Assembly (NCBI GenBank): GCA_963756225.1
Contig: CAVWMZ010000003.1
Span: forward strand, 275,988-339,987
Origin: Candidatus Staskawiczbacteria bacterium
GTDB taxonomy: Bacteria > Patescibacteriota > Minisyncoccia > Minisyncoccales > Staskawiczbacteraceae
Direction of reading: 5' to 3'
Length of the DNA: 64,000 nt
In this document: positions 39,886-63,317 of the stretch, piece after piece
How the letters are laid out: every line of letters begins with the position of its first letter
Numbering within the stretch: position 1 is the first letter of the stretch
Notes under the pieces: model-generated
The model's input: the letters and a program-made list of their open reading frames with translations, nothing else
The model's database searches: none
Told to the model about the DNA's origin: nothing
Translations under genes and position numbers: made by a program

Positions 39886-40432
39886 GATTTTTTAAAAATT
39901 TTAATTTTATAAATAATACAATTACGGCCAAGACTATAGTTGCCGCCAAAACTGTAAAAAATAAAAACCAAGGATTTTTTATATTATTATTCTCTTGGTT
40001 TCCATCTAAACTTTGGCTGACATCTGCTAGTCCTGGAGCTGATACGTCATTTTTAGCAGAATTTTTGCTTTTTGACAAGGCTTTATTATTGTTTGTCGTT
40101 CGGACTGCAGTAATAATATTAATAGCTCCCGGAGTTAATGTTGAGCTCCACTGCCAACTAGACCCGACTTTATTATAAGACTGATTCAGCGGGGCTGACG
40201 CGAAAGTCATAGAATCAACAGCCTTCCCGTCGGGTGTTAATAAATTTAAACCATCCTTATCATTATTTAGCATTATTTTTGTGTCAGGTCTTTTAAAAAC
40301 TAAAAATCCATTCGCTAAAATATTTGTATTTTGTGGTATCGTATAGGTTGTTATTGTGCCCCGTATGTCTTGTAATTCCCATCCAAATAAATCAACATTA
40401 ACATTATTAGAATTATATAATTCAATCCATTC
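39872..40432 (-). pseudogene. 3' half of a ComEA-HhH/lamin-tail-domain (LTD) gene, separated from its 5' half by the integrative element
   Basis: From the GAATGG core the frame reads EWIELYNSNNVNVDLFGWELQD…, the LTD consensus start, then a Thr/Asn-rich region and a C-terminal TM helix. The residues upstream of the core (MARSDCRVVATTQ) are element sequence. Confidence 0.75.
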
Positions 40433-40443
40433 TTGGGTTGTCG

Positions 40444-42099
40444 CTACAACCCGACAGTCGCTCCTGGCCACTTTCTCCTCTTAGGGGTATTAGGAACTCT
40501 ATTTTCGAGCTTATCGTCAGTTTTAACCACTTTTTCTACTAAGTCCTGCAGAATCTCTCTCTTTAATTCATAAGTAGCATTTTCAAGCCCATTTTTCAAT
40601 TGTCCATAAAGCTCCTTTATAGACATCAATTGAATTGCCTTTTCATTTTCAGATGTTGCGAACCGCCCCAGCTTTGCATCCTCTTCTTGTAGTTTTTCAA
40701 TTTTATCATCACACTCTTTTATTTTTTTATCATAAAAGTTTTTGCTTACAGATTTTTCGGCATATAATTCAGCGTACCTTTCCTTTTTTTCTTCTTGGGA
40801 CGCAAACTCTTTTTTAATGGTTTCTAACCGATCAGATACATTATTACCGCCACCTTGGTTTTTACAATCTTCAATTTCTTTCAACGCTACCTCCGGTTCA
40901 AGAAAAATTTCTTTTAGCTTGTCCCACACCGGCGGCATAATTCTTGATTCACTTATAGTTGGCACACAGCACCTCCTCGCAGTCATGTATGGCCTATTTC
41001 CCACACAGAAGTAGTATTTTGTTTTTCTTTTTTCACCCTCGTCTGTTTTATATTTTCTGTTGGCGCTTTGGTATTTATAGCCATCGTAGCCGCAGACTAT
41101 TTTATGCTGGAGGGTGTAAATTTCTTTTGTATTTCTTATCGCCTGTTCTTTATTCTTTTTCAGTTGTTTTTGTCCTCTTTCAAATATTTCTTTGGAGATA
41201 ATTTTTAGAGACTTGTCCTCAACTTTAATCCAGTCTTCTTTCGGCCTTAAATTGTTTTCATTTTTTGTCCTGCCGGGATGCAAATATTTTCTGTAGTAAA
41301 ATGTTCCCGTGTAAACTTCGTTGCTCAGAATTCTGTCCACCGTTTTTCTATTCCACCAGCCTTTAGTTTCTGTTATTTTTTTTCTTCCTATTAAATCAAA
41401 CTTTGTGGGAACTTTCATGTCGTTTAATCTTTGCTGTATTTTGTATTCGCTCAATCCTTCGTCCACAAGCCATCCATACATCATTTTTACTGTTTTTATT
41501 TCATTCTTTTCAATTTCCAGTTTTTGTTTTTCTTTATTGATTTTTAGTCCATAGGGAGCGGTACCACCCAAGTATTTTCCTTCCTTCATTGCCTTCACCA
41601 TCCCTTCATTTCTTGATTCCAATCCAACCTCCCTCATCCACTCAGCGAACACGCCCGCGTTAGCGAACATAGCCCTCCCGGTAGGTGTTGAGGTGTCAAA
41701 CGGCTCTGTCACTGACTTAAACTCTATCCCGATGTCCCTGAGTTCGGCCACGGTGTTTAGTAGTAGTCGTAGGTTTCTAAAGAACCGATCCATTCTATAA
41801 ACAATTATTACATCAATCTTTTTATTCCGGGCATCTTTGAGCAATCTTTGCAGGTCCGGCCTTTTTTCTGTTCCGCCCGAGAATCCGATGTCTTTATATA
41901 GTGACCCTTCGTTTATTTCCCATCCTTCATTTTTTGCAAAGCTTTTTATTTTTTCTTCCTGCGTCTCCGGGCTGTATCCTTCCTTGCCCGCCTCATCTGA
42001 CGAGCATCTAACATAAAAAGCCGCATTCTTTGTTTTAATGGTTGTTTCTCGGCCGATGTTATAATTTTGTATTGCTGTTTTCATGTTGTTTTTCTCCAT
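40444..42099 (-). CDS. Large serine recombinase (integrase)
   Basis: 551 aa. The resolvase catalytic domain is AAFYVRCSSDEAGKEGYSPETQ…DVIIVYRMDRFFRN…. It is followed by a recombinase domain, a Cys-containing zinc-ribbon region (…KIVCGYDG…FCVGN…RRCC…) and a long coiled-coil. Confidence 0.9.
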   Translation of the reverse strand: MEKNNMKTAIQNYNIGRETTIKTKNAAFYVRCSSDEAGKEGYSPETQEEKIKSFAKNEGWEINEGSLYKDIGFSGGTEKRPDLQRLLKDARNKKIDVIIVYRMDRFFRNLRLLLNTVAELRDIGIEFKSVTEPFDTSTPTGRAMFANAGVFAEWMREVGLESRNEGMVKAMKEGKYLGGTAPYGLKINKEKQKLEIEKNEIKTVKMMYGWLVDEGLSEYKIQQRLNDMKVPTKFDLIGRKKITETKGWWNRKTVDRILSNEVYTGTFYYRKYLHPGRTKNENNLRPKEDWIKVEDKSLKIISKEIFERGQKQLKKNKEQAIRNTKEIYTLQHKIVCGYDGYKYQSANRKYKTDEGEKRKTKYYFCVGNRPYMTARRCCVPTISESRIMPPVWDKLKEIFLEPEVALKEIEDCKNQGGGNNVSDRLETIKKEFASQEEKKERYAELYAEKSVSKNFYDKKIKECDDKIEKLQEEDAKLGRFATSENEKAIQLMSIKELYGQLKNGLENATYELKREILQDLVEKVVKTDDKLENRVPNTPKRRKWPGATVGL

Positions 42100-42259
42100 A
42101 TTTATCCCAAAGCTCGTTGAAACTTTTCATAATAAATATGCAGTTTTCTTTGGTTAATATTCCCTCGCTCAATTCGACCACTTTTCTTACGTCAAACATA
42201 TTAGTTGCTCCGCTGTCCCGGATTTCCAAATAAGTTTGAAATCGTTTTTTTGTTATCAT
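42059..42259 (-). CDS. Small conserved-looking mobile-element protein
   Basis: 66 aa, …YLEIRDSGATNMFDVRKVVELS…. It overlaps the recombinase start. The function is unknown. Confidence 0.4.
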   Translation of the reverse strand: MITKKRFQTYLEIRDSGATNMFDVRKVVELSEGILTKENCIFIMKSFNELWDKYGEKQHENSNTKL

Positions 42260-42316
42260 GTTTTTTCATTTTAATTATTCCGACCTCATCAAGGTAATGG
42301 ATACTCCTATTAAAAG

Positions 42317-42655
42317 TTAAGTCAAGTTGTTTCCCTCGATCATGCCTTTATATCTTTGTTTCCTATATTCAAGCCCCAAACAGATCCGGCAGCCAATTTG
42401 CTGGTTTATTGGGTGGTAAAACAGCACCCCGGCTCGTTTATTGCATATGGGGCATAGGAACCATATGCGCGCGCCGTTGAAGCAGGTTTTGGAAGTAGTC
42501 AGCTCAATTTTAAGGCCCAAGGTCTCTAACTCTGAAGTTAAGAGCGATTCTTTTAATAACACCCTACTTTTTTTCAAAAAATTATTTATGCGTATTGCTT
42601 GGCACTCGTCCACCAAAATTGTTTTTCCTAAATCATTTGGGTTCAATGTTTTCAT
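42317..42655 (-). CDS. Hypothetical zinc-ribbon protein
   Basis: 112 aa with CPICNKR…GCRIC, which are CxxC pairs. Confidence 0.4.
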   Translation of the reverse strand: MKTLNPNDLGKTILVDECQAIRINNFLKKSRVLLKESLLTSELETLGLKIELTTSKTCFNGARIWFLCPICNKRAGVLFYHPINQQIGCRICLGLEYRKQRYKGMIEGNNLT

Positions 42656-43304
42656 TTTTTTCTTTTGGATTAATATTTAGCTGTTGGTTCTGCGCAAGAA
42701 AGGTGTTTTTACTTTTTAGGTTTATTTCGATCGCCGGCGTCTTAAATTGTTTCAGCGTTGTAATGGTGGCTATAAAATGTCGATAGGCACGATCAATCTC
42801 TTTGCCGATCATTGAGTAGTAATCATTTGTCTGTTTTGTTGCTATTTCAGCGCCGGCAAAGGATATGCATCTATGCATCTGTGCTGAAAGCTCCATAATT
42901 CTTATATAGGCGTTAGCCACAGCCTGGGCCAATGCTTTTTCACCTGCCGATTTACAATCAAAATCCTCGCAAAGCTTACTTGCAAACTCTATTGCGAGCC
43001 CCTTATAAGACCGTCCGGTAACATAATAAAGGGGATAATGGTTATCTAATCCGTTCGCAATCAAAACTTCCTCTATCACTCCAAGATTTAAGCCATCTAC
43101 TCCTTCATCTACAGCTTTTTTAATTTTTTCTTTTGTGTCCAATCTTTCATTCAATTTTCCTACCGACAAACGAGGGTCGTCAAAGAATGTAAACGATTTA
43201 ATTATGAAGTCCCTTAATTCCTTAATGCTCATCTTTTCGATGACGGCTTTATTGGTTTCATCTAATTGCTTTATGTTTTCATTTTTTGAGCACCCATTTT
43301 CCAT
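42633..43304 (-). CDS. Hypothetical protein
   Basis: 223-aa ORF that overlaps the downstream gene start. No family recognised. Confidence 0.4.
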   Translation of the reverse strand: MENGCSKNENIKQLDETNKAVIEKMSIKELRDFIIKSFTFFDDPRLSVGKLNERLDTKEKIKKAVDEGVDGLNLGVIEEVLIANGLDNHYPLYYVTGRSYKGLAIEFASKLCEDFDCKSAGEKALAQAVANAYIRIMELSAQMHRCISFAGAEIATKQTNDYYSMIGKEIDRAYRHFIATITTLKQFKTPAIEINLKSKNTFLAQNQQLNINPKEKNENIEPK

Positions 43305-43484
43305 AAAATTTTTAAGCTTATTTTTATTAAATTTTATTGTAGAGTTGTTTCCACCCTGTGGAAATAATTAATGTTCTTTCCTTTGGGTAAGATTAGGAAT
43401 GCTTCTTCCCAATCTATTCCCTTTACTGCAAGATTTGCAGTGATTTTGTAATTTGGGTACAAGTGACCGATGCCTTGTTCTTTT

Positions 43485-43577
43485 ACTACCAGAACTACCA
43501 GAACTACCAAGATATAAAGTAAGGGCTACATATACAGACCCAACTCAAACCTCGGTAGTTTCGGTAGTTTCGGTAGT
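43485..43577. repeat. Inverted arrays of 9-bp-period iterons (ACTACC x3 / GGTAGT x3)
   Basis: ACTACC occurs at 43485, 43494 and 43503. GGTAGT occurs at 43554, 43563 and 43572. The right array overlaps the last codons (TTETTETTE) of the helicase gene. Confidence 0.6.
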
Positions 43578-45682
43578 TTTTGTCTTAAATTTAATATTTA
43601 GAACGGCTGAAAACGAATCCTCGTTTTGCTTCCTTTTTCCAATTTCATATCCAAGATCCCGCAATTGTTTACCGGCCTGTCGTATATTTATAATTCTTAA
43701 CCTTTTGGATTTTAACCAAAGATTAAATCTATTCCCGAATTCTTGGAGTTTTACATTTTCTCCTGCCACTTCTTCACAATTTTCTTCAATAAAAGTTGGT
43801 AGGGGATTTGATCTCTCTTCATATTTTTGCCCCCTTTCTTCGTAGCTACCTTCATTTGTGAATTTATGAGTTTCGTATAATCCCTTAAGTATATTCACAC
43901 ACTTAAAACAAAGTTTCTCGTATTCTTGTTCCGAAATTCCAGAAAGAACATCTGACTTAATGTTAAAAATGTTTGGAAAATCAGTGATAACCCACCTCCT
44001 ATAAAATCCAAGTGATTTATCCGGGGTAGTTGGCAGACTATTGGTTGCAATGAAGAAAGTAGTAATGCAATCATCGGTAAAAGAAGTTTTGCCCTTGAAC
44101 TCGTATTCTATTAAATCCTCTCCTGTTATTTTTTTTAAAACATTTGTACTGGACAGGTCGTTATATCCAACTTCTCCGGCAAACGCCACGAGTTTTTTGT
44201 AAATAGAACTCATGGCAAAATTATTTATTGATAATTTTTTTATATCTATGGAAATACAATTATTGCGACCAACCAACTGTTCTACAACTTTCAAAAAAGT
44301 TCCTTTTCCGTTGCTTCCTCCGCCAGTCAGGGCAATTATCCTTTGCATAAACAAATCATCTGTTAAGGCATACGATATATATTCGTATAAACTTTTTATA
44401 TAACTCTCATCCTGAACGCCTTCTTTAACGGCCCACTCTCGTAAAAGCCTATCTATCTCCGGCGTTTCCTCCGATTCGCCGAGTTTATGTGGGATCGGGT
44501 TGGTTAAAAAGTATTTATGATCTGCTTTTGTTTGCTCCAATGTTTTTGGATTTATTAAAACATCTTTAAATTGTATCCACCCCTTCGGCTTTAACTGAGG
44601 CGCCTGTTCGCGCCCCACTTGTTTTAAAGCATTTAATATTTGCGTTCGGTTTCCGCTACCGACCGTATCAATATTCATCTCTTTGCGAATTCCGTTTAGC
44701 AAATCAGTTTCATCCTTTGGTTCGTAACAGCATCTATCAAAATTCCAGAACCATAATAATCCTTCGGGAGAAAAGTAAATTGGTTGTTTTTCTATAAATA
44801 TCTTTGCTTGTCCTATTCTTGTAAAAACATCACCTGTATTTTTAGCTTCTTCCTTTTTCTTGTAGAAATTAAACTTATCCTTTAATTCCGCTTCTTCAAT
44901 TGGTGGTTTGTTTTGCGTGTTCCACATTTTTGTAGCTTCCCATGCAACCTTAAAATCTTCTTCAGTTTTTGCTCCAGCTAAATAGTGTCCAATCACTCTG
45001 ACTGATAAGTTGTTTCTGCCGCCGTCTTCTACTCCGTATATAGCCGAAGAATAATCAAAAGCTTCTTGAGGTTGTTCTGACTGATTCTTTCCTTCCACTT
45101 TTTGAAAAGGACACCTTTTTAAATAATCCAAATACCAATCAACGGGAAATTCTGCGAATGGCAAATCCTCAATAATTTCATAGCCAGCCCAAGTCCCGTC
45201 TAATAATTGATATTTTGTTGGTGGGGCGAATTTAGTCCTCCGTCTGAACGAATATCAACGTTTTTCGCTTGATTCTGGTTTTGTTTAACCTTGTCTGTGT
45301 ATCTATACCACTTATGTATTCCCTTCCGAGTTGCAGTCGTAAAAGTTGGTGGAAGTTTATTTAATTCTGGGAAGTTTTTGCAGTCTATATCTATAACTGT
45401 TTTGTCGCTTATCTTTCCTGTTTTTATAGCTATGCCTTCAGCAAAACTAAAACTTCTTTCCAGTTCAAAATCGTTTTTCGGATTTTCAATAATCTCACCC
45501 CATGACGGTAAAAAAGGTTTTTTCTTTTCTTCTCCCTTTGCATCCAAATATGTATCTATATGAAAAATAGGTAAAATAATGATCCCTTTTTTGATATACT
45601 CTAACGCAAATTTTTTTATTTTTTCTTTATATTCATTTTTCATCAAATATTTTATTAATTTTTTTAATAACTTCTGTTTCAA
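43545..45682 (-). CDS. Bifunctional primase-polymerase (PrimPol) fused to a P4/D5-type helicase, apparent frameshift near 45225-45240
   Basis: The PrimPol part reads …GIAIKTGKISDKTVIDIDCKN…KGIHKWYRY…NVDIRSDGG. The alternative frame continues …FAPPTKYQLLDGTWAGYEIIEDLPFAEFPVDWYL… straight into the 539-aa ORF, which has Walker A LTGGGSNGKGTF. Confidence 0.7.
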
Positions 45683-45914
45683 TTATCCCGCCAATTTCTT
45701 GGTTTATTGGGTGGAATGTGTTTATATTTTTTTCTCCAACTTTTTTACTGGGATAAACCAGCCTGTATCCCGAACCATCCAGTTTTGTATAGATCGCAAC
45801 CGAACCAACATAATATTTTTCTTCTAAAATAAAAGAAACGAAGCCAATCAGCCCGTCTTTTGGTTTAACTGGTATTACTTGAATTTCACTTATTTTCAAA
45901 TTTTGTGTTTCCAT
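45633..45914 (-). CDS. spoVG: SpoVG-family protein
   Basis: …KISEIQVIPVKPKDGLIGFVSFILEEKYYVGSVAIYTKLDGSGYRLVYPSKKVG…FHPINQEIGGIIETEVIKK has the SpoVG pattern (…HPIN…). Confidence 0.6.
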   Translation of the reverse strand: METQNLKISEIQVIPVKPKDGLIGFVSFILEEKYYVGSVAIYTKLDGSGYRLVYPSKKVGEKNINTFHPINQEIGGIIETEVIKKINKIFDEK

Positions 45915-45983
45915 AGATTTTATGCTTGGGATGGTGCAAGGTACTACCTTGCTATGTCTGCCGTGCTTTATGTTTGCTGGCGG

Positions 45984-46289
45984 CTATGTTTTACTTTTTT
46001 TGTTAAGGGGATTCACCCTTTTCTTTATGGCCTCGTCTCTCGCCAATCTTATAGCATAATTTAAGACTTCATTTTTATCTTCCGGAGCGTAGTCGTCTTT
46101 TTCAACGAGTTTGTAAAACCATTTTTTAACCAAGCGAGGATGCAATGTTTTTCTATTTTTACTTACTTCGTGAAAGCAGATCAATGAGCTCCAGCAAGGG
46201 TTTAACCTTTGCGTTTCCGAAAATTCATATTTTGGAAACTGGCCTGAGTATTTAATGTTTTGTGGATTTTCAATTATTTGGTCTTGCAT
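45984..46289 (-). CDS. Hypothetical protein
   Basis: 101-aa ORF. No family recognised. Confidence 0.35.
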   Translation of the reverse strand: MQDQIIENPQNIKYSGQFPKYEFSETQRLNPCWSSLICFHEVSKNRKTLHPRLVKKWFYKLVEKDDYAPEDKNEVLNYAIRLARDEAIKKRVNPLNKKSKT

Positions 46290-46463
46290 GTTGTTTTTGT
46301 TGTTTGATTATCGTGATTATTAAGTTCGTTAATATTTTTTTTATTGAATAAAATAATATCAATCCATTTTTGCATTTTTTTTCTTCTTTCCGCATAGGGT
46401 ATATCCGAGGACTTTATTGTTATTTCAAAAGCTTGTTTCATAATACAAGCTCATTATAAATAC

Positions 46464-46498
46464 CAAAAAAGACACTAATTTGCATAAATTAGTGTCTT
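46464..46498 (-). terminator. Strong rho-independent terminator
   Basis: A 13-bp perfect stem AAGACACTAATTT/AAATTAGTGTCTT with a 4-nt loop, followed by a T-run on the minus strand. Confidence 0.7.
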
Positions 46499-46527
46499 AA
46501 ATATACTTAATTGCGCCGACTTAAATT

Positions 46528-47358
46528 TTAACTCCGGTCTATTATTTTTTGTATTGCGGACGTAGTAATTTTAATTTTTTCTTGCCGCATATCTTGCTTA
46601 ATTTTATCAACAATATGGTTTGCGCCAACCCTCTTTTCGTATTGAGCGTATAATTCCAAGACTGTTTTTCTAATCTTACTTCTTTCGTCTCTTCTCGGTC
46701 TACCTATCAGAACTTTTTTGTCCAAAGACCCATATTCTTTTTTATCTCTTTTAGCCATTTCAGCAATTTTTGTTGAAGCCATATCCCCATCCAGTCTCAT
46801 AAATTTTTCGTATTTACCAGCTATAAAAGGGTGCGCTCTGTAGATAGTATACGGTCCGGGGTCGGCAGGGATTATCCGGTTAAAAAGTAAAAGTTCTTCC
46901 ATGGCAGAGTAATATGATTCTGATAGTCCAAATTTTACTAATATTTCGTAAACCACCTTTTTAATTTTTTCTTGTATTTTATAGTCGTGTTTTTCATCGT
47001 GCATAAAGCCAATCCATTTATTGAATTCAGAACTTCTCGCAAACAATTCGGTCGAACATAATTCATATTTTTTGGGGTCAGTTCCTTCTTTTACCCCATT
47101 TATAATTGATATATCTATTTCTTTGTCTATTTTGAATCCGGATAATAAGTTGGGCATCCCTATTATTTTTCTCCCCTCAACAATATCTTTTTGTTTTTTT
47201 GGATGTTTAATTATTTCTTGGTGCCTAAGACTATTTTTATGAAATTCTTTGAGTTCGGGCAACTCTATGGGATGTATTGTGGGACTATTAATTATCCCAT
47301 AAAAAATACTCATATCTCCCAGCTGATAAGATTCTTTTACAAATTCATATCCCGCCAA
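46528..47358 (-). CDS. Hypothetical protein
   Basis: 276-aa ORF. No family recognised. Confidence 0.4.
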   Translation of the reverse strand: MAGYEFVKESYQLGDMSIFYGIINSPTIHPIELPELKEFHKNSLRHQEIIKHPKKQKDIVEGRKIIGMPNLLSGFKIDKEIDISIINGVKEGTDPKKYELCSTELFARSSEFNKWIGFMHDEKHDYKIQEKIKKVVYEILVKFGLSESYYSAMEELLLFNRIIPADPGPYTIYRAHPFIAGKYEKFMRLDGDMASTKIAEMAKRDKKEYGSLDKKVLIGRPRRDERSKIRKTVLELYAQYEKRVGANHIVDKIKQDMRQEKIKITTSAIQKIIDRS

Positions 47359-47785
47359 ATATTCTGCTTAATATCAATATTTTTTTTCTTAAATATGGGG
47401 CTCTTTTTACACTCTATAATAAAATCTTCAGCATCCATTTTGTTTCAAATTTTGTGTTAATTATTTTTTTACTTAACTTAAACTTATTTATGCCTGCTTA
47501 CGTTTTCTACTTTATCCTGCTACTTTTTCGGCTAATTTTCAAGCTTCGGGGTGTTCATTTCCAAAAATTTGTTATATGATAAATCAACAATTTAATATGA
47601 GTTACGGCCTAAACCTTTGAAAGAAATTTCAGTGGCATGGTCATTTATCACATAGAGCTTAAAGATCCCATCATCAGGATCGCTCAATGCGTCATACGTG
47701 GAAACGCGTATGTGACCGCAAGGTCAAACTGGTGGTGGGCTTTTTGTTTATGCCACCAGAATCATAAAATTAACTTGTAAAATTT

Positions 47786-48385
47786 ATGAGTGAAATAATT
47801 TATGTTCTGATAAATGAAGCTATGCCCGGTTATGTAAAAATCGGCATGACCAATAACTCTGTTTTAGAGAGGCTTAAACAACTGGACAGGACTAATATCC
47901 CTATGCCTTTTGAGTGCTATTATGCCTGCGAAGTAGAGAATGCACACGAAGAAGAAAGGTGGCTGCATTCTATATTTTCAGATCGCAGAGTCCGCGATGA
48001 GCGCGAGTTTTTTAAGATTGATCCGGAGCGCGTCGTTGCTGCTGTTCGTAGGATCCAAAAAAAAGACGTCACACCTAAAGATTTTGTTAACGTTACAAAA
48101 GAAGAAGAAAGCGAGATTGAGGGCGCCAAAGAAAAAAGAGCGCGTTTTGATTTCGCTAATTACAAAATACCAGTCGGCTCAACCATTGTTTTTTCAAGAG
48201 ATAATTCTGTCACGGCCAAAGTTCTTGAAAATAACAAGATTGAACTTGATGGCAAGTTAACGAGCTTATCAGAATCCGCACAAAATTTGCTCGGCTACAA
48301 AAGGGGAATCGCTGGCATTTTGTATTGGATGTATGAAGACGAGACATCGGATGAGCGCCGCCAAAGGATGGACTTGGAAAAATAA
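47786..48385 (+). CDS. T5orf172/GIY-YIG-like nuclease-domain protein
   Basis: IIYVLINEAMPGYVKIGMTNNSVLERLKQLDRTNIPMPFECYYACEV…ERWLHSIFSDRRVRDEREFFKI fits the T5orf172 (MUG113-like) pattern. Confidence 0.6.
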   Translation: MSEIIYVLINEAMPGYVKIGMTNNSVLERLKQLDRTNIPMPFECYYACEVENAHEEERWLHSIFSDRRVRDEREFFKIDPERVVAAVRRIQKKDVTPKDFVNVTKEEESEIEGAKEKRARFDFANYKIPVGSTIVFSRDNSVTAKVLENNKIELDGKLTSLSESAQNLLGYKRGIAGILYWMYEDETSDERRQRMDLEK

Positions 48386-54214: not shown

Positions 54215-54927
54215 TTACGGTATTTCCTTGAAATTAATCAATTCTTTTATCAACCCTTCGTTTTTAAGATAACCCCTGAAATCAACGTATGTAGAATTAT
54301 GAATGAAGCTGTTGGGAGTAATAAACCCAAGTTTACCGCTATCTTTTTTTAAGGAATTAATGCCGATTTCAAAAAATACAAGGAATAAATCTATGATCCC
54401 ATTCCTGCAGAAAACATATCTGTTTTTTATGTCTGAAATTTTGCTTTTGTCTATGTTATGAATTCTAACATATGGAGGATTACCAACAACGTAATCGAAA
54501 CTCGGTAATTTTTTCTCCCAGAAATTCAGTATGTCGTCATTAAAAATTTTCCACTTAACGTCTGTTATCCCATATTTATTTGATAACTGATTAAGGCGGT
54601 TGATGCATTGCTTAAAAACACATTCGTCTATCTCGATTCCGTAAATATATTTTTCCAGTCCACTTTTTATTTCCTTTTTGCTAAGCCCATGTTTTAAGCC
54701 AGAACCAATATATCTATTGATAATCTGATACAAGAAATTACCATCACCACACCCCGGTTCAAAAACATATTTTTTTAGTATTGATTCTCCGTTATATTCT
54801 AAGCGATTCAAAATAACTCCAACAATCCAGTCTGGCGTGAATACCTGTCCCAGCTTCTTTTTTTATCAATCGCACTGCAGTATGGTATGGACAATTCAGA
54901 TTTATATTTTTCTTGTAATATCGCCAT
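54215..54927 (-). pseudogene. Remnant of an Eco57I/TaqI-like N6-adenine methyltransferase: frameshift in a homopolymer and a missing C-terminal region
   Basis: From ATG 54927 the frame reads MAILQEKYKSELSIPYCSAIDKK, then shifts in the A7 run (T7 on the plus strand, 54858-54864) to KKLGQVFTPDWIVGVILNRL…FEPGCGDGNFL…VVGNPPYVRI…. The ORF stops after about 240 aa, with no target-recognition region. Confidence 0.65.
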
Positions 54928-55065: not shown

Positions 55066-55143
55066 CGCCTATTTTTATTGACTTTTAATTAATATTATAG
55101 TATAATATTAATAAGTTTTATTTAACAAAAATTAGAAAAAATT

Positions 55144-56031
55144 ATGGCTAGAAAAAATAAGAAGATTGGTTTCATAGGCCAAGGATGGATCGGTAAAAAT
55201 TATGCTGATGATTTTGAAAAAAGAGGATATAACGTAGTTCGCTATTCTCTTGAGCAAAAATATATAAGAAATGCTAGTAAGATAAAAGACTGTGATATCG
55301 TTTTTATTGCTGTCCCAACTCCCACGGTTGGAAATGTTTTTGACGATAGCCTTGTGAGGTCATCAATAAAAAAAGTTGGCAAAGGGAAAGTTGCTGTAAT
55401 AAAATCAACTATTTTGCCCGGGACAACAGAATCTATCCAGAAGGAAAATAACGGTGTCTATGTTATGCATTCACCAGAGTTTTTGCGTTCAGCTAGTGCG
55501 GCATATGACTCAGCTAATCCAGAAAGGAATATTATAGGTATTCCAGTAGATAATGGAGAATATAGGAAGCTTGCAAATGATGTACTTAAGACGTTGCCTA
55601 AGGCTAAATTTGAAACTGTATGTAATTCTAAAGAAGCGGAGATTATCAAATATGCAGGCAATGCTTTTCTCTATCTGAAGGTTGTGTATATCAACTTGCT
55701 TTTTGATTTAGCGACAAAAAATGGCTGTGACTGGAATATTGTAAAACAATCATTCGGAGCCGACTCAAGAATAGGTAACAGTCACCTTGACCCTATTTCT
55801 TCTAGTGGTAGGGGCGCTGGAGGGCATTGTTTTATTAAGGATTTTGCTGCATTAGAAAAATTTTACAAAAACAGCATAGGAGATGAATCTGGGTTAAGAT
55901 TTTTAGAAAGCATATCAATAAAAAATATAGAATTATTAATAAAGAGTGGGAAAGATATAGACTTATTGGAAAATGTATATGGCAAAGATGTTATTAAAAA
56001 GATGCGAGGCCGAATCAGTAAGGATAATTAA
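55144..56031 (+). CDS. UDP-glucose/GDP-mannose dehydrogenase family protein (short)
   Basis: IGFIGQGWIGKNYA is the NAD-binding motif, followed by …IKSTILPGTT… and …HSPEFLRSASAAYDSANPERNIIG…. Confidence 0.65.
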   Translation: MARKNKKIGFIGQGWIGKNYADDFEKRGYNVVRYSLEQKYIRNASKIKDCDIVFIAVPTPTVGNVFDDSLVRSSIKKVGKGKVAVIKSTILPGTTESIQKENNGVYVMHSPEFLRSASAAYDSANPERNIIGIPVDNGEYRKLANDVLKTLPKAKFETVCNSKEAEIIKYAGNAFLYLKVVYINLLFDLATKNGCDWNIVKQSFGADSRIGNSHLDPISSSGRGAGGHCFIKDFAALEKFYKNSIGDESGLRFLESISIKNIELLIKSGKDIDLLENVYGKDVIKKMRGRISKDN

Positions 56032-56037
56032 TTTTTA

Positions 56038-56473
56038 TTGTTGATGACTATAAGCTATAAATTACCACATCAAATTATAAAATTCTTGATAATAGGTGTC
56101 TTAAACACCGCGATTGATTTTGCTATATTAAATGGGCTTGTTTTTGTATTCACACCCGGGCAAGAACACGTTGTTGTATATTTCATTCAAAGCAATTTCT
56201 TTTTTAGTTGCCGTAATAAATAGTTACTATTTTAATAAATATTGGGTATTCCATTCACAGACTAATTCTAAATCAAAGTTCAGTTATTTTTTTATCGTAA
56301 GCTTAGTTGGATTCTTTCTAAACGTGGCTGTTGCCTCAATAATATACAATATCCTTGTTAGTACATATCCGACCCACATTCAAATCATAGCTAACATAGG
56401 AGCATCAATGGGTACGTTTATCGTTCTAATTTGGAATTTCGTTGGGTATAAATTTTTAGTTTTTAAAACCTAA
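56038..56473 (+). CDS. GtrA-like membrane protein, apparent frameshift near 56155-56165
   Basis: …IKFLIIGVLNTAIDFAILNGLVFVFTPG / KNTLLYISFKAISFLVAVINSYYFNKYWVF… is the GtrA family pattern across two frames. Confidence 0.55.
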
Positions 56474-56478
56474 ATAAT

Positions 56479-59015
56479 ATGGAAGATATTTTTTTATCAG
56501 TTATAATTCCTGCATACAATGAAGAAAAAAGAATAGGGAATACTCTTTCGAGCATCCAAGAGTATTTTAAGTTGAAAAATATTACTTATGAAATTATAGT
56601 TGTTAACGATGGATCTACGGATAGTACGGTGGGAGCCGTAGAGGCTTTTCAAAATAAAGATCCAAACCTCAAACTTATTAATAATCCAATTAATTTTGGT
56701 AAAGGATATGCTGTAAACTGCGGGATGAATGAAGCCAAGGGTAAATACAGGCTATTCATGGATGCTGATAATTCTGTTCACATTGATTCTGTTGAAAACT
56801 TTTTAACTGAGATACGCGAGGGGGCTGATATTGTGATAGGTTCAATCGCCATTAATAAAGCTGAGGTCACTGAGCACAATGCTTGGCATCGAAGGATATT
56901 TGGTACTATTTCAAAGTTTCTTATTAGAATGGTTGCTGTGCCAGGTATTTATGATACACAGAGGGGTTTTAAACTTTTTACCGCAGAATCTGCTACAAGA
57001 ATATTCCCTCTTCAAACTATCTGGAGATTTGGTTTTGATATTGAGTTATTGGTGATTGCCGAAACTCAGAAAATGAAAATCAAAGAACTACCAGTTGTAT
57101 GGGACAATCCCAGCGGTTCTAAGGTTAGGCTCAGAGATTATATTAAAACCTTCTATGAACTTTTTAGAATTGTTTTAAATAAAATTCGTGGAAAATATAT
57201 TTTGAAAAGTAAAAACATTACTACGATGGAAAACAACATTGCATGTGAAGAGGATAAGGGGATAGATAAATCATATGTCGCTATTGGAGGTATGGATAGC
57301 TTTTTTGAGAAACTTGCAATGCACGCTTTATTTTTCGGTATTTTTTTGGTTTTTATTCTGAATGTAGGATTTTTTATGGGCGTTACAATCAATGGATTCA
57401 TTTTACCGGTCGCATATATATTATATTTATTAGGTCTATTATTATTAAACCTCAAGCTACATAAGAAAATAAAATTAATAGGCATTATTACCGCGATAAT
57501 TATAATACCAACGGTTTTATTTTTAGGATTCCTTTTGTTTGCTCACACATATGATTTTACAGTCGATGGGCAAGACTATCAACAAACGGCCGTGATCTCA
57601 ATGGCCAATGGGTGGAACCCGATTAGAGGTTCTCAGCTAAAGATACCAGCCCCCGTCGGTTTGTATGGATTGGGTGGGGAATTTGGATTACCATTTGCCA
57701 TAGGTTACCCAAAGACTCTTTGGATGATACAATCTTCTATTTACAAAACCACGGGCCATGTTAATTCTGCAGTTATTACCAACTTGCTGTCGGCCTTAAT
57801 CGCTTTTGTATTTCTTTTTTATCTGCTTCTTAGGCTTAAAATTTCAAAGTTTTGGGCATCATTTATAGCACTGTTTTCCGTTTTAGAGCCACACTTTATC
57901 CAACAATTTTTCTCCTTTATGTCGGATGGTTTTGGTTACGAAATTTCTATAGTAGCAATAGTCGCATTAATAAGCTTGATTATTAGTAAAGAAAAAACCA
58001 CACCCTTATTATTGTTTATATGTTCTTGGATTTTTCTTATAGGAACAAAATTCAGTAATGCATACCTCGGACTTATTTTAGCCGTTGTTTGTTTAATAAT
58101 AATTATTAAATATGTTTTCTTTCGCCAGAAATTTTCAAAAAAATAAGTAGAAATATTACTATTAGGAATATTTTTATCAATATTTATTTTATCTAACCCA
58201 TTTGTTGTAAATTTTTTTAGATATGGGTCTCCTATTTTTCCTGCTAATTTTTCTTGGGCGAAAGAACAGGTTAAAATACAAAATGTTCCACTTAATCTTT
58301 ATAACGCCAATAGTCCAGAGCTACTTTTTTACGGAATATATTCACAAACACAAACTCCATCCGAATATTCAAATTCTCATAATGTTGCTGTATTAAAAAT
58401 ACCTTTTACTATAAGTCGTGGAGAGATTCCAAGTATGTCTACAAGCCAGCCGTCTATAAGGGTTGCTACGTGTGGATTACTTTTTAGTGGTCTTTTTACT
58501 ATTAGTATTATCCTTTTGCTTTTAGTATTTATTTTTGTCCCATCATTGCTTAATGACGGGGTGATCTGGTCTGCCATTATATCCAGCGTGCTTATAATCT
58601 TTGCCGCTCTTGCTTTACCGACCCCCAACGTTTTGAGGTATACGCCCCTAATAACCTTTATTCCTTTTATTACACTTATAAGTTTGATTATGATTAATGG
58701 CGCTAGAAAAATTTTATGGTTGCGGATTGCAATATTTCTATTTGCTGTACTTTTAGCAATAAATACAATAAATTTTTTGTATATTTTCGCTGTCACTAAC
58801 ATGAACGAAACCCAGCAAGCCCGCCAACAGCTTCACTGTTGCACGATAGTGGATTAACTTACGATGTTTATGCTCCTAGCTTTTATTCCAATTATATCCG
58901 TTTTAAAGAGGCCGGTATTAAGTTCAATGAGACGAATAAACTTTCCTGTAAAAATCCTCAAACACTAGATTATACATATGGAGCATCTGCAACAAAATAT
59001 TGTCCTGTTCAATAG
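56479..59015 (+). CDS. GT2 glycosyltransferase fused to a large polytopic membrane domain; interrupted by an in-frame TAA (58144-58146) and a frameshift near 58830
   Basis: LSVIIPAYNEEKRI…VVNDGSTDST…LFMDADNS… is a dolichyl-phosphate glycosyltransferase-like GT2. The same frame stays open from 58147 to 58857 with further TM helices. An alternative frame continues …LASLLHDSGLTYDVYAPSFYSNY… to 59015. Confidence 0.6.
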
Positions 59016-59050
59016 ATTGGACTTTCTTTATTGCAGTATAAAATAATTAT

Positions 59051-60720
59051 ATGATGGATCCAAATAAAATAAATAAATATCTTTATATTGATAAAACTCC
59101 GACTTGGTTGGTGAGGGCGACATACGCCATCGGTATTTGTGTTTGGTCTTTAGTGTTATATGAATATACAATTGCTGCAATGTATAATTCATTCTACTTT
59201 TGGGTTATATATCCATTCATTATAATTTTTACTGTTTATCTATTTTTAAGTTTCGGACTGAACCTTTTTTATCGCAGGTTCGATCTTAAAAAACATTTCC
59301 CGCTTGTTAGTCAATTTTGGTCAACCATCAATAATAATTATCCATCTGTCAATGTTTTTTTGCCGATATGCGGTGAAGATCAGAGAGATTCTAATACACA
59401 CATGGGAAAACGTATCTCGGCTCAATTATAAAAACTTCAAAGTATACGTGTTAGATGATTCTAAAGAAGGGCAAGAAGAACATAGATTGATGGCTGAAAA
59501 ATACGGATTTAATTATTTTGAGAGGCCGAATAAGGGTGAAGTGAAAAAAGCGGGCAATCTTAAATATGGATATGAAAGAACAAACGGAGATGTTATTGCT
59601 ATTTTTGATGCCGACTTTGCGCCCCATCCAGATTTTTTGCATGACCTTCTGCCATATATGTCTAATCCTAAAATAGGAATAGTGCAATCTCCGCAATATT
59701 TTGAGACTTCAGAAGAAGCGAATAAGCATTCTCGCTTGGCATATGGTTCATCTTATGTACAGGAGTGTTTTTATAGATTTATAGAAGTTGTAAGAGATAG
59801 ATTCAACGCCACTGTTTGTTGCGGGACTTGTGCTGTTTATAGGCGTGCCGCTTTAAAAGATATTGGTGGTTATGTGCAAGTCGGACACAGTGAAGATCAG
59901 AGGACTGGTTTTGCCCTTCAAAGCAAGGGATACATAGTAAAGTACATTCCTATTATCTTGACGGTTGGATTGTGTCCCGATGATATATATACCTATTTTC
60001 ACCAGCGGACACAGATGGTGCGCTGGAAATATCCAGTTAATGTTGGATAAGAATTTTTGGAATTACCGGTATCCTGGCAGACAAAACTTTCTTATTTCAC
60101 TGGCTTCCTTTTCTATATCTGGTATCCGCTTTCAATCATTTTTTCCTTTCAACTTTTCTATACGCTTTTTTACTACAACCAATATATATCCTTTTATTCC
60201 GGGCTGGCATTTTATCCATATCTACTTTTTTCAATAATGTTTATGGTATCTTTTTCAACACCAAGATTCCATGTGGGGGCCATATACGCATCTTTTGCTA
60301 GGATATACGCCTACAGCCATGCCGTTCTTTCCACCTTATTTGGGCAATCGGTTGGATGGATAGCTACTGGCGCGAAGCAGTCCACCGTTTCAAAAGCTTT
60401 CCGAAACACTGTTATTATTATTTGTATATATATTTTTGTTTATATAGCACTGATAGCCTTTTCTTCCGGGGAGGATTAATACATTTATTTAATTACAATT
60501 ACTGGTCTGTTCAATTCTGGTTGTTTTATAACATAGCCCTTCCGGAATTATCTTATGGCAGATGTATGCAGCCATGGCAAGAAGGCAAAAAGAACAAATT
60601 CTACTTGAGAACAATCAATCTAAGTCTGATAATTCTTCTATTAATTTATGGATGTTAAAAACCACGGGTGTATATGTCTTATTGTTAATTTTTATGTTTG
60701 GCGTTATAGTATTTATATAG
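59051..60720 (+). CDS. Cellulose-synthase-like GT2 membrane glycosyltransferase, at least four apparent frameshifts
   Basis: The pieces give …VNVFLPICGED / ILIHTWENVSRLNYKNFKVYVLDDS…IFDADFAPHPDFL…VQSPQYF…CCGTCAVYRR…FHQR / HRWCAGN (QxxRW-type motif) / …WQTKLSYFTGFLFY…, followed by C-terminal TM helices. Confidence 0.6.
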
Positions 60721-60806
60721 GTAGCTATTTTTGTTTTTGGCTATTGACAAATTATCATGTTTAATGATATACTGATTAATATTTATTAATAATTCATTAA
60801 TAATTA

Positions 60807-61112
60807 ATGAAAACCAATATGAATAAAATTATTTTAGTTTCCGCTACATTAATTGTGGCGTTGTTTGCAGTGGTCGTCCCATTAACTACTTACGCTCAAT
60901 ATGGAGGAGGCGGTGGCGCAATGATGATACCGCCCACAGTTTCATCTATTCCCGGTGATATAACTGGCAACGGAACAGTTGATGAATATGATTTAGCAAT
61001 ATTAATGTCGCAATGGGGACAGACAGGAACTAATCTTTCTGCTGATTTAAACCATGATGGCACAGTCAACGAATATGACTTGGCTATATTAATGGCTAAT
61101 TGGGGCAAATAA
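60807..61112 (+). CDS. Small secreted dockerin-repeat protein
   Basis: Signal peptide, then two EF-hand-like repeats DITGNGTVDEYDLAILMSQWG and DLNHDGTVNEYDLAILMANWG. Confidence 0.65.
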   Translation: MKTNMNKIILVSATLIVALFAVVVPLTTYAQYGGGGGAMMIPPTVSSIPGDITGNGTVDEYDLAILMSQWGQTGTNLSADLNHDGTVNEYDLAILMANWGK

Positions 61113-61132
61113 AAATATAAATAAAAACTACT

Positions 61133-61869
61133 ATGAAAAAAATAATCTTATTAGCATTATTAACCATTGTAGGAGTATTGGGAGTAAGCCAAATGGTTTT
61201 GGCAGATACCTTCAATATTATCTACATCACCAGCAACTCTTAATAGCGCTGTTGGTACACCATTTAATGTTTCAGTTAATTTGAATCCATTCGGCAATAG
61301 TGTTTGTGTCGTAATGGGTGCTGTAAATTTTAATGGATTGGCTTGTCAAAGCATTAACGTAGCGACAAGCGGCATTATAGCTACGACACCTCCGACTTGT
61401 GCTAACCCAAGCTTTGTTATAGCTATCCCAAAATGCACAACAGCTTCTCAAGATTTGTTTTCAATGTCTATTAAAGGTAATCAAGTTGGTCAAGCATATT
61501 TGTATTTTACAGGGTTAAAGGCTGTAGGAGTTAGCGGCAATACTGCAAGTAATGTCGCGTCTGTGTGGGAAGGCGGTTCATATAACATATTGGCTACAAC
61601 AGCTCAACCAACACAACAGCCACAACACAAGTAGCGCAACCGACAATACAAACAACTCAGCCAGTCCCAACAAGGTTACTACCCCAGAGCAGCAAGCAGC
61701 ACCAGTTAATAATATTCCAACAGGCCAAGGAGCAGCAGCCGGATTGCAAGCTTCTCTTGCAACCAGATCGCCCATAAATACTACAGTGGTAATTGTTATT
61801 GTCTTGTTGTTAATTATAATAATTGGAGGAGTGTGGTTGATGATTAGCAAGAGAAAAAAGAATAAATAA
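61133..61869 (+). CDS. Membrane-anchored surface protein, possibly cohesin-like; two apparent frameshifts
   Basis: Signal peptide MKKIILLALLTIVGVLGVSQMVLA, then a beta-rich domain (…LNSAVGTPFNVSVNLNP…VMGAVNFNGL…), a Thr/Gln/Pro linker, and a C-terminal TM with KRKKNK. The cohesin assignment is tentative. Confidence 0.4.
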
Positions 61870-61961
61870 TCTCAAGATTTTTTGAAAATAAAAAGCTCTG
61901 CAATAAAATGCGGGGCTTTTTAGTTTCCAAATCATTAAAAATTGTAATATAATTAAAAAAT

Positions 61962-62681
61962 ATGATTAACTATTTATATCTTTATTTAATATATTTGATT
62001 TTTGCGTTGACTCCGGTTTTGATCTGGCTTTTCTTTTATTTCAAAAAGGATGCGCACCCTGAGCCGAAGAAAATGATTTTAAAAATTTTCATTCTCGGAA
62101 TGGTGGCAGCTTGTTTGGCTGCTCTTTTTGAAATGGTTGTTTTGAAGTTTTTTACAGGAACATCACTTTTGTTTGCGGTTTTGGAATCATTCCTTTTGAT
62201 TGCTTTAGTTGAAGAATTTGTTAAATGGCTCGTTGTAAGAATTTTTATTTATAACGATCCTGTGTTTGATGAGCCGCTTGATGTCATGCTTTATATGGTG
62301 GTTTCTGCTTTAGGGTTTGCTTTTTTGGAAAATATAATACTTTTTTTTGCTGCGAGTCAGCCATATGCTATCGGAGCAGCGATTAGGTTTGCTCTGCTGA
62401 GATTTGTAGGAGCGGTATTTTTGCACACACTAACATCTGGAACCATAGGATACTTTATAGCCTTATCTTTTTGTTCGATTAAAAACAAAACGAAACTTTT
62501 ATTTACAGGGTTTTTAATAGCAATTGTGTTGCACGGCTTCTATAACCTTGCCATAACACGGCTTACCGGATTCTGGCAGTATTCTGTCCCTGCCATAATC
62601 ATAATTATTTTAGCTGTTTTCACCACATACGGCTTTGTTAAGTTAAGAAAGCTGAAGGGTGTCTGCCAAATATCATCGTAA
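61962..62681 (+). CDS. PrsW-family intramembrane protease
   Basis: Polytopic, with LVEEFVKWLVV (the ExxK motif) and later FLHTLTSGTIGY…HGFYN. Confidence 0.6.
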   Translation: MINYLYLYLIYLIFALTPVLIWLFFYFKKDAHPEPKKMILKIFILGMVAACLAALFEMVVLKFFTGTSLLFAVLESFLLIALVEEFVKWLVVRIFIYNDPVFDEPLDVMLYMVVSALGFAFLENIILFFAASQPYAIGAAIRFALLRFVGAVFLHTLTSGTIGYFIALSFCSIKNKTKLLFTGFLIAIVLHGFYNLAITRLTGFWQYSVPAIIIIILAVFTTYGFVKLRKLKGVCQISS

Positions 62682-62700
62682 TTTTGGTATAATAGACTAA

Positions 62701-62746
62701 GGGCTGGAAGTTGCAGTAGTTAGTACAATTTAATAAATGCCAGCCC
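62701..62746 (+). ncRNA. Candidate structured RNA, copy 2 (orphan, with its own terminator)
   Basis: A TGGTATAAT lies at 62685-62693, then GGGCTGG-AAGTTGcagtagttagtaCAATTT-aataaatg-CCAGCCC. A terminator hairpin follows at 62750-62780. There is no downstream plus-strand gene. Confidence 0.35.
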
Positions 62747-62749
62747 AAC

Positions 62750-62780
62750 GAAAAGACCCTTACGGGCCTTTTCTGTTTTA
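62750..62780 (+). terminator. Rho-independent terminator
   Basis: GAAAAGACCC-ttac-GGGCCTTTTC followed by TGTTTT. Confidence 0.6.
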
Positions 62781-62876
62781 ATTATACCTCCGCCATAATC
62801 CTTTTACCTTTATTTCCTTCCGCCAGGTATGTAGTTACAAATATGCTAAAGCTGTTTGTTGTATTGTAGGTACGAC

Positions 62877-63317
62877 CCATTCATCGTCACTGTCGGCTCC
62901 TTCTGGATTAGGGAGAATTTCATTTATGTACACACCACTTGGGTATGTTATTGCTACTGCAGGAGCTGGGCTTTCTATCTCGGATGTTTGGTTTGTATCT
63001 ACGGTTGTTGGCGTTGGATTGGTTGTTTGGTTTGTATCCACTGTTTGTGTTGTGGTTGTCTGACAATTAACACATGCCCATCCTTGATTTATTATATCCT
63101 GCAAATACTTTCCATTACCGATGCCCTTTACCCTACTTAAATCTCCGACTGAAGAAAACGGTCTTGAGTCGATAATCTTTTGCGCTGTTTTTGGACCGAT
63201 ATGCACAATTTCGTCGAGTTGCGACAAGTTTGCAGAGTTAATGTCTATTTGTTCGGCTAAAATAAAAACCGGGCAGGAAAAAAACAATACGCAAAATAAG
63301 AATAAAACCTTTTTCAT
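62877..63317 (-). pseudogene. 5' half of the ComEA-HhH/LTD gene
   Basis: Signal peptide, then the ComEA-type helix-hairpin-helix (INSANLSQLDEIVHIGPKTAQKIIDSRPF…VKGIGNGK), a Thr-rich linker, and …VYINEILPNPEGADSDDEW at the core. Beyond the core the ORF runs 14 codons into element DNA and stops at 62835. Confidence 0.75.

Follow-up and report, generated by a model that had tools for sequence, protein, structure and literature searches.

A host gene split at the two ends of a 22.4-kb insertion

The window analyzed here is a 64,000-nucleotide stretch of contig CAVWMZ010000003.1 from a Candidatus Staskawiczbacteria bacterium, with coordinates given on the forward strand. Two of its minus-strand open reading frames (ORFs) lie at the outer edges of 22.4 kb of DNA carrying a large serine recombinase (LSR) gene, a replicon, and accessory cargo, and each encodes one part of a secreted helix-hairpin-helix (HhH)/lamin-tail domain (LTD) protein. 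In the ORF on the right (62835-63317), a signal peptide, an HHH_3 domain, and a Thr-rich linker are followed by ...NEILPNPEGADSDDEW, after which come 13 unrelated codons (VVPTIQQTALAYL) and a stop; the host-derived reading ends ...YINEILPNPEGADSDDEW. The ORF on the left (39872-40471) begins with 13 unrelated residues and then reads EWIELYNSNN..., the start of an LTD that is followed by a linker and a C-terminal transmembrane (TM) helix. This arrangement had been noticed earlier from the letters of the window (the original prediction); translation and the Pfam LTD match agree with the description of the left ORF as a lamin-tail start with a TM anchor, and for the right ORF the domains and the split stand, with the count of unrelated codons corrected from 14 to 13. 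The hexamer CCATTC, which reads GAATGG on the gene strand, lies at 40427-40432 and again at 62877-62882, in frame with both gene halves, at the positions and in the frames originally given. The C-terminal half of the host gene, comprising the LTD from EWIELYN onward, the linker, and the TM anchor, occupies 39872-40426 on the minus strand (Pfam LTD, 49.1 bits; 71% identical to residues 140-328 of the intact homolog P0001) and forms the B' side of attL. The N-terminal half, with the signal peptide, HHH_3 (45.9 bits), the Thr-rich linker, and the first ~20 LTD residues, occupies 62883-63317 on the same strand (65% identical to residues 1-144 of P0001) and forms the B side of attR.

CCATTC occurs 32 times in the window (18 on one strand and 14 on the other), and the hexamer by itself is not significant; it is the join of the two halves that is significant. 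Joined through one copy of the hexamer, they give a 331-aa protein with signal peptide, HhH, LTD, and TM segments. The original prediction had proposed looking for uninterrupted orthologs and for a complete LTD spanning the two halves, and both were found. The halves make one domain, since Pfam LTD matches the joined protein with 61.5 bits (profile positions 6-107 of 109) versus 49.1 bits for the C-terminal half alone (22-107). Uninterrupted orthologs are numerous: the joined protein has 433 homologs at E<1e-5, the closest 70% identical over 100% of the length, and nearly all of the best 120 of the 433 are ~300-350 aa long with HHH_3 and LTD, many of them labeled Candidatus Staskawiczbacteria. 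In an alignment with 12 uninterrupted homologs the junction is gap-free and E146-W-I-E-L-Y-N152 is invariant. The HhH region had been called ComEA-type. The HHH_3 domain match upholds this at the level of the domain (PF12836, 44-46 bits, the only region that matches), and the ComEA family model TIGR01259 reaches 31 bits against a cut-off of 152; the host protein is best named an HhH(ComEA-like)-LTD surface protein.

The closest relative of the locus, L001 (JGI Ga0182027_10000192), has an intact gene followed by yebC, ruvC, a 57-aa ORF, a penicillin-binding protein (PBP) gene, dnaN, dnaA, rnpA, yidC, and an R3H gene, which is the order found in the window to the left of 39872. A 224-aa gene (h224) from the upstream neighborhood of L001 is found to the right of 63317. 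Residues 1-144 of the intact L001 protein map to 63317-62874 and residues 140-328 map to 40438-39875, and this synteny shows the 22.4 kb to be an insertion. GC content is 35.0% within the element versus 37.3% in the sequence to its left; neither GC content nor GC skew breaks at the element boundary, and no tRNA gene is involved at the insertion site. The junctions lie within 40397-40462 (attL) and 62847-62912 (attR), and the attB reconstructed from them is ATTCTCCCTAATCCAGAAGGAGCCGACAGTGACGATGAATGGATTGAATTATATAATTCTAATAATG.

The recombinase and an attachment site within its own gene

The LSR gene (40423-42099, minus strand) adjoins the left copy of the core. In the window it is read as an ORF of 551 aa (40444-42099) with a 1-nt homopolymer insertion near its 3' end (GAAAATAG in place of GAAATAG). 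The near-identical short-read copies P0231, P0233, and P0236 read ...KLEIEFLIPLRGESGQERLSGCSDNPRMD, an ending that agrees with the family consensus, and the intact form P0231 is 553 aa long and ends ...NPRMD. The 553-aa ORF extends across both P arm and core (AGA ATG GAT TGA) to a host-derived TGA stop at 40423-40425, and with the indel corrected attP therefore lies inside the LSR ORF. A 551-aa recombinase ending 12 nt from the left core had been described; the length holds for the window ORF, the gap is 11 nt, and the intact enzyme is 553 aa and reads through the core.

The LSR matches PF00239 Resolvase over the complete profile (128 bits, 1-145 of 145), PF07508 Recombinase (71.6 bits), and Zn_ribbon_recom PF13408 (25.8 bits, slightly over the 25.3 cut-off). 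R31 and S33, and Cys336, Cys365, and Cys377 of the zinc ribbon, are invariant in an alignment of 27 LSR sequences. It aligns over its full length to the SPbeta integrase (PDB 9dxh, residues 62-515; E 2e-13) and also matches the TP901-1 catalytic domain. The best NCBIfam matches are CcrB (138 bits), CcrC (114 bits), and XisF (99 bits), all far under the equivalog cut-offs (900 and 375 bits). Judged by its predicted domains, the adjoining gene is a bona fide large serine recombinase. A 66-aa ORF (42059-42259, minus strand; phrog_8677, E 2e-6) overlaps the start of the LSR gene, accompanies the LSR in relatives, preceding it in L044 and in the circular contig described below, and is a candidate regulator or directionality factor.

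The P arm of attL lies at 40433-40449 on the minus strand (TTGTAGCGACAACCCAA on the gene strand); it also encodes the LSR C terminus ...GCSDNPR and carries the pattern TTGT[AG]G-N-GACA found in 17 attL junctions. The P' side, also read on the minus strand, occupies 62785-62876, with the P' arm GTCGTACCTACAA at 62864-62876 and 31 codons in the LSR frame (GRTYNTTNSFSIFVTTYLAEGNKGKRIMAEV). The reconstructed attP, GGGTTGTAGCGACAACCCAAGAATGGGTCGTACCTACAATACAAC, has the imperfect dyad originally noted: TTGTAGGTACGACCCA agrees with the reverse complement of the other arm, TTGTAGCGACAACCCA, at 13 of 16 positions. A 36-bp dyad is common to four attPs, two of them deduced (the window element and L063) and two observed in free forms (L077 and L050). 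In all four the outer hexamers lie at -17 to -12 and +13 to +18 relative to the G of GAATGG, and the symmetry center is therefore the dinucleotide GA. This dinucleotide falls within the attP/attB identity (6-8 bp) in every case and is non-palindromic, as expected of a serine-integrase crossover site. From the dyad geometry we infer cleavage at GA of GAATGG, which places the predicted crossover dinucleotide TC of the forward strand at 40431-40432 in the left core and 62881-62882 in the right. At the level of sequence the sites have the form of serine-integrase sites, with short, imperfectly palindromic attP and attB sharing a central dinucleotide and an in-frame, scarless join.

Because attP lies within coding sequence, the free and integrated forms of the LSR differ at the C terminus. 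The circular form would encode ...NPRM-GRTYNTTNSFSIFVTTYLAEGNKGKRIMAEV (584 aa), and the integrated form ends ...NPRMD (553 aa). The free form carries a conserved extension that amounts to 31 aa in the window element and to some 155 aa in the relatives with 711-aa LSRs, and a motif in the 31-aa extension, TxxF[SK][IV]FV[TS]T, is common to L063 and to the 711-aa free-form LSRs P0130 and P0147. The shared motif suggests that the extension is coding sequence and more than a DNA site.

A family of recombinases sharing one target

Loci of the family came from scans of genomes and metagenomes, a search of protein sequences, and inspection of gene context. About 90 LSR homologs, 35-89% identical, turned up in the protein search, their source labels including Staskawiczbacteria, Doudnabacteria, Nealsonbacteria, and Parcubacteria. 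Counting the window, the family numbers at least 17 elements, all inserted at one and the same codon of an LTD gene. In the 16 further loci, whose LSRs are 43-89% identical to that of the window, the LTD C-terminal half begins within ~100 nt past the LSR, at homolog residues ~138-143, and the shared target codons are E-W(F)-I-E. The site specificity expected in the original prediction is borne out by these loci. No LTD was found beside the LSRs of 34-41% identity in the loci examined. Aligned on the E codon, all 17 attLs have TTGT[AG]G at -17 to -12, GACA at about -10 to -7, and then the core GAATGG, the exception being a Doudnabacteria locus with the core GAATTT (E-F). In that locus (L046, JGI Ga0265296_1000438, 11660-12500; LSR 64% identical) the target protein has two LTD repeats; the insertion is in the first, and the second (GEFIELQN) is intact.

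The recombinase of L004, in a metagenome-assembled genome labeled Saccharibacteria, is 80% identical to that of the window and is followed by ...TTGTAGTGACAACCCAA-GAATGG-ATAGAAATATATAAT (EWIEIYN), yebC, ruvC, PBP, dnaN, and dnaA. Its element genes (LSR 80%, SpoVG 75%, a 101-aa ORF 75%) are far less diverged than its host genes (YebC 59%, RuvC 53%, LTD half 41%), which indicates that the element has spread horizontally. In L063, whose LSR is 43% identical, both junctions are present ~7.5 kb apart; the N-terminal ORF ends ...PSPEGEDAEEEW|SVATKQHSLYL, the core is 8 bp (AGAATGGA), and the cargo consists of a DNA methylase, a DnaD-like protein, and a few small ORFs.

Other relatives provide the free site. 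P0130, P0137, and P0147 are LSR homologs of 711-715 aa, and in contigs L050 and L077 the LSR ORF passes TTGTAGCAACAACAGAA-GAATGG-ATTGTCCCCACAA into a conserved ~155-aa extension, with element genes on both sides and no LTD in either contig. The site is a genuine attP in a molecule that is not integrated. The possibility that the 711-aa LSRs are read-through fusions of LSR and LTD was considered and rejected, the extension being encoded by the element (P' side) and unrelated to LTD. L077 (ENA ERZ6006181 NODE_184, 20,905 bp), which is unintegrated, has its 711-aa LSR at 938-3076; the region 11033-19671 encodes several UvrD/AAA_11-type helicases and an HTH_17 protein as well as a TrwB/TraG-like coupling protein. 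The molecule is possibly a mobilizable or conjugative plasmid of a bacterium of the Candidate Phyla Radiation (CPR).

These loci bear on whether the repeated hexamer reflects site-specific recombination at all. A 6-bp direct repeat around an insertion resembles a target-site duplication, CCATTC is common in the window, and the assembly has indel errors, so that one might propose a transposon-like insertion that duplicated 6 bp of its target, or else a chimeric assembly. We give this next to no credence. No DDE transposase was found and no terminal inverted repeats, one codon is targeted in all 17 loci, in divergent hosts and beside a conserved P arm, and the same attL is present in independent short-read contigs (P0231, P0233, P0236; L045, L048). 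The free-form relatives, moreover, already hold the GAATGG core between inverted arms, which a target-site duplication would not predict. The 17-locus attL alignment and the free-form attPs effectively refute duplication and chimerism alike.

The LSR, the 66-aa ORF, and the att specificity constitute a portable module, which relatives combine with a prophage, with a plasmid that encodes a TraG-like coupling protein, or with a minimal element of 7.5 kb. The nearest LSR (89%) belongs to L044/L048 (IMGVR_UViG_3300040758_000073), an element that IMG/VR lists as viral and in which genes for a DUF5681 protein and a large terminase (phrog_2, E 1.7e-27) immediately precede the LSR (L044, 4456-6265); it is a probable CPR prophage using the same att specificity. 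The replicon in turn occurs with another recombinase. In L079 (ENA ERZ25039501 contig_49098, 283,690 bp), positions 8446-15400 carry the same replicon as the window element at 90-100% aa identity (a 276-aa ORF, SpoVG, a 699-aa PrimPol-helicase, and 223-aa and 112-aa ORFs), joined to a different, unrelated-looking 539-aa serine recombinase beside tRNA-like sequences and outside any LTD gene. The integration module has thus been swapped recently.

A free circular form and its probable replicon

The 90% cluster of the window LSR includes fragments on a 22,433-bp ENA contig from another metagenome assembly (ERZ25039472 contig_41715; L078 and L080) that is colinear with the whole element, 99.3% identical, and circularly permuted. 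Reverse-complemented, it runs from window position 42310 to 40437 and then directly from 62862 to 42306, the second segment being a single colinear alignment of 20,577 bp at 99.3% identity, and its ends overlap by 5 bp (ATAGG) at window positions 42306-42310. The contig is a closed circle of the whole element in which P is joined to P', and it supplies the free circular form that marks an integrative plasmid.

At the circle junction (L078, ~1870-1880), 29 bp of the predicted attP (ACAACCCAAGAATGGGTCGTACCTACAAT) are missing between ACAAC direct repeats, a deletion that takes out the core and inner arms (window 40433-40441 and the 62863-62882 region). The circular junction that the original prediction had proposed to look for was accordingly found in part: the contig joins the element ends within the predicted attP, with a junction that has lost 29 bp including the core. 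The contig ends elsewhere than at the junction, and the loss is therefore not an end-joining artifact. It may be a real palindrome-associated deletion, which would lock the plasmid state and imply autonomous replication, or it may be a consensus error. Searches of IMG/VR for an intact attP of the window element retrieved with the P-arm pattern nothing but one more attL, in L048, which represents the L044 element, and a search there with the P'-arm pattern for an intact attP or attR found nothing. The assembly that contains the circle also contains a 10,645-bp contig (contig_41716, L081) with the same replicon and different genes upstream of T5orf172; the presence of this variant beside the circle suggests that variants of the element coexisted in the sample.

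The replicon lies next to the integration module. A PrimPol-PriCT-DUF5906 helicase replicase is encoded at 43545-45682 on the minus strand (Pfam; PHROG DNA primase, E 9e-54); it is split in the window by a 1-nt deletion and is one intact 699-aa protein in L079, L083, and L084. At its 3' end (43485-43579) Tandem Repeats Finder detects inverted 9-mer iterons, a candidate replication origin (DNA fold z = -2.2): three copies of ACTACCAGA at 43485-43511 face three copies of TCGGTAGTT at 43552-43579, with about 40 nt between them, and the iteron palindrome that had been reported earlier is real. Two conserved backbone ORFs of 112 aa and 223 aa (42317-43304, minus strand) have no Pfam, PHROG, or NCBIfam match and are conserved in L004 and L079. 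On the other side of the replicase gene, 45633-47358 (minus strand) encodes a 93-aa SpoVG-like protein together with backbone ORFs of 101 aa and 276 aa, with 75% identical homologs in L004; the SpoVG match (E 6e-6) reaches 26.7 bits against a Pfam cut-off of 29.6.

It could be argued that the element is integrative and does not replicate, the circle being either a short-lived product of excision or a dead-end derivative formed by deletion, and the PrimPol-helicase serving transfer or repair. The circles that many integrative elements form on excision do not replicate, this one was found in a single assembly, and no partition genes were identified in the element. We regard this explanation as rather unlikely. 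Transient intermediates seldom yield a closed contig of their own in an assembly; a circle lacking the core would be unable to re-integrate and, should the deletion be real, must be maintained by replication; and PrimPol-DUF5906 proteins with adjoining iterons are typical plasmid or phage replicases.

Discussion

The most probable reading by a wide measure is that 40433-62876 of the window is a 22.4-kb LSR-integrated, plasmid-like element of an ultra-small, Ca. Staskawiczbacteria-like (CPR/Patescibacteria) bacterium, with a free circle and a replicon of its own. Recombination by the LSR of the element took place between the attP at the 3' end of the LSR gene and an attB situated in the most conserved codons (D-E-W-I-E-L-Y-N) of the gene for a secreted HhH/LTD/TM protein, with strand exchange predicted by the dyad geometry at GA of GAATGG. 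Integration yielded attL (40427-40449) and attR (62864-62882), with no duplication past the shared 6-bp identity; it severed the HhH half from the LTD and anchor half and exchanged the last 31 recombinase codons for one codon and a host stop. Excision, which is precise in silico, would restore both the host ORF and the long form of the recombinase. The free element is a circle, probably replicated by the PrimPol-DUF5906 helicase from the inverted 9-mer iterons.

Several observations weigh against this model. A same-species empty attB was not found in a set of 5.8 billion proteins, in which the best intact homolog is 70% identical, and no intact attP was seen for the element itself, the core being part of what the circle has lost. 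No recombination directionality factor was identified in the element, and replication from the iterons is a prediction from their arrangement. The closest LSR relative, L044, belongs to a terminase-bearing element, and a phage-derived or satellite nature is possible. Indel errors in the window also mean that some cargo genes may or may not be functional.

The phage question can be addressed by the gene content. No virion genes are among the Pfam matches of the element, and a PHROG search of 20 ORFs gave no structural or packaging match, the only functional-category matches being to DNA-metabolism families, chiefly DNA primase. These results and the PrimPol-helicase replicon agree with the original description of the element as plasmid-like rather than a prophage. 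It is very unlikely that the element is a prophage or phage satellite, with a circle representing a genome packaged by virion genes of its own that escaped detection or by those of a helper. What speaks for such an origin is the large terminase and viral listing of the element with the most similar LSR (L044/L048), the fact that about a dozen ORFs of the window element have no annotation, and the possibility that structural proteins of CPR phages are too divergent for PHROGs. However, approximately half of the 22 kb is restriction-modification (R-M) and glycosylation cargo, the other unannotated ORFs are short, and between LSR and replicase L044 has its terminase in place of the 112-aa and 223-aa ORFs of the window element. 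On the absent PHROG matches a prophage identity was rejected for the window element, although a close relative is phage-like. Pfam also gave no match to relaxase, coupling protein, or type IV secretion genes in the window element, which is consequently not classed as an integrative and conjugative element.

The plasmid-like element has a definite effect on one part of its target. On the predicted reading frames the LTD and membrane anchor have certainly lost their link to the signal peptide. The 160-aa N-terminal product retains the signal peptide and the HhH domain, and DNA binding may therefore persist. The inactivation of the host gene that had been proposed is thus partial as far as it can be predicted, being certain only for the LTD and membrane-anchor part. 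Scarless reconstitution of the gene was obtained in silico, and the circle exists. The target gene is conserved and lies beside yebC-ruvC near dnaA, and the element may alter DNA binding or uptake by its cells. The position of attP within the recombinase ORF suggests in addition that the integration state could feed back on the recombinase. A bolder proposal, which we put forward tentatively and with more doubt than confidence, is that integration and excision toggle both the LSR C terminus and the host HhH-LTD protein, the tail swap acting as a switch of directionality or stability and the element family reversibly switching DNA binding or uptake in CPR bacteria, which are thought to depend on scavenged DNA. 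Any relevance of the tail swap to directionality or stability is speculation, for which mycobacteriophage integration-dependent immunity offers an analogy.

Established examples of LSR insertion into protein-coding targets are the Listeria comK prophages and SPbeta and skin of Bacillus subtilis, and the mechanism here is standard LSR integration into such a target. As in the Listeria A118/phi10403S comK prophages ("active lysogeny"), an LSR element lies within a competence-associated coding sequence, precise excision restores the ORF, and the attachment site adjoins the integrase gene. Unlike those prophages, the window element has no virion genes, carries a PrimPol-helicase replicon, and resides in a CPR host; its target is a secreted HhH-LTD protein and not a transcription factor, and regulated, reversible excision is only a possibility for it. 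SPbeta (SprA/YokA, in spsM) and skin (SpoIVCA, in sigK) likewise split a gene in frame and allow its reconstitution by excision, and the full-length alignment to the SPbeta integrase is one of low similarity; in contrast to these elements there is no sporulation context here, the cargo and replicon are different, and a free replicating circle is likely. The best NCBIfam similarity, to SCCmec Ccr and Anabaena XisF, is to LSRs of non-phage chromosomal cassettes, which differ in their targets (orfX, fdxN) and, for CcrAB, in using a pair of recombinases where the window element has one.

An attP in coding sequence, with C termini that differ between states (584 versus 553 aa for the LSR here), is also found with SSV1-type archaeal integrases and in mycobacteriophage integration-dependent immunity. 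Those systems use tyrosine recombinases, however, and in SSV1 int is split in two, whereas mycobacteriophage integration truncates the repressor. As a small circular replicon that is either free or site-specifically integrated and carries accessory cargo, the element resembles pSAM2 and other actinomycete integrative and conjugative elements and the pNOB8-like and pSSVi integrative plasmids of the Sulfolobales, but these have tyrosine integrases and tRNA-gene targets instead of an LSR and a protein-coding target, and conjugation genes were not detected in the window element. What is new is the CPR/Patescibacteria host clade, the HhH-LTD signature motif as target, and the combination of a plasmid-like replicon with R-M and glycosylation cargo, and also the size of the natural family on one site and the position of attP inside the LSR ORF.

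A literature search brought up no description of ComEA-LTD proteins and none of serine-recombinase elements in Patescibacteria. The mobile elements of CPR bacteria are poorly known, and a 2025 groundwater survey describes CPR plasmids as rarely studied (PMC12023590). Here one such element is defined to the base pair in integrated and circular form. At least 17 recombinases of 43-89% identity acting on one protein-coding motif would provide a natural attP/attB set for the study of serine-integrase specificity, and the recombinases of the family are candidate genetic tools for Patescibacteria.

Sequence quality and cargo genes

In the window dnaA, dnaN, and PBP (33155-38077) align to their L001 orthologs in two to four pieces in different frames, and single-base indels relative to intact near-identical copies are present in the LSR (40515), the PrimPol-helicase (45230), and the family 2 glycosyltransferase (GT2) genes (56479-60479). 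The window is probably a long-read assembly with residual indel errors, and its apparent pseudogenes are therefore not to be trusted. The ORF boundaries that had been taken at face value have to be revised accordingly where such indels split the LSR 3' end, the PrimPol-helicase, and the GT2 genes.

The cargo list given in the original prediction is right at the Pfam level, apart from SpoVG falling below the Pfam cut-off and PrimPol and helicase forming one 699-aa gene. A T5orf172/MUG113 (GIY-YIG-like) protein is encoded at 47786-48385 on the plus strand (Pfam, 66.8 bits). It is followed on the minus strand by a Type III R-M pair (50065-54175), identified by adjacent genes for Res (50065-52455; ResIII PF04851, 75 bits) and Mod (52448-54175; N6_N4_Mtase PF01555, 134 bits) that overlap by 8 nt. 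A short Eco57I/MmeI-type N6-adenine methyltransferase fragment of 198 aa (54215-54811, minus strand; Pfam Eco57I, 81 bits, profile 45-166 of 171) has the same length in the circle, which marks it as a real gene, truncated or orphan, rather than an artifact of assembly. On the plus strand, 55144-60479 holds a glycosylation cassette recognized by Pfam, with a UDP-glucose dehydrogenase-like protein, a GtrA flippase-like protein, and two GT2 glycosyltransferases, the last frameshifted in the window and 845 aa and 331 aa long in the circular contig. Surface and secretion cargo completes the element at 60807-62681 on the same strand, with a dockerin-domain protein (Dockerin_1, 38 bits), two small secreted or TM ORFs, and a PrsW-family intramembrane protease (PrsW, 109.5 bits).

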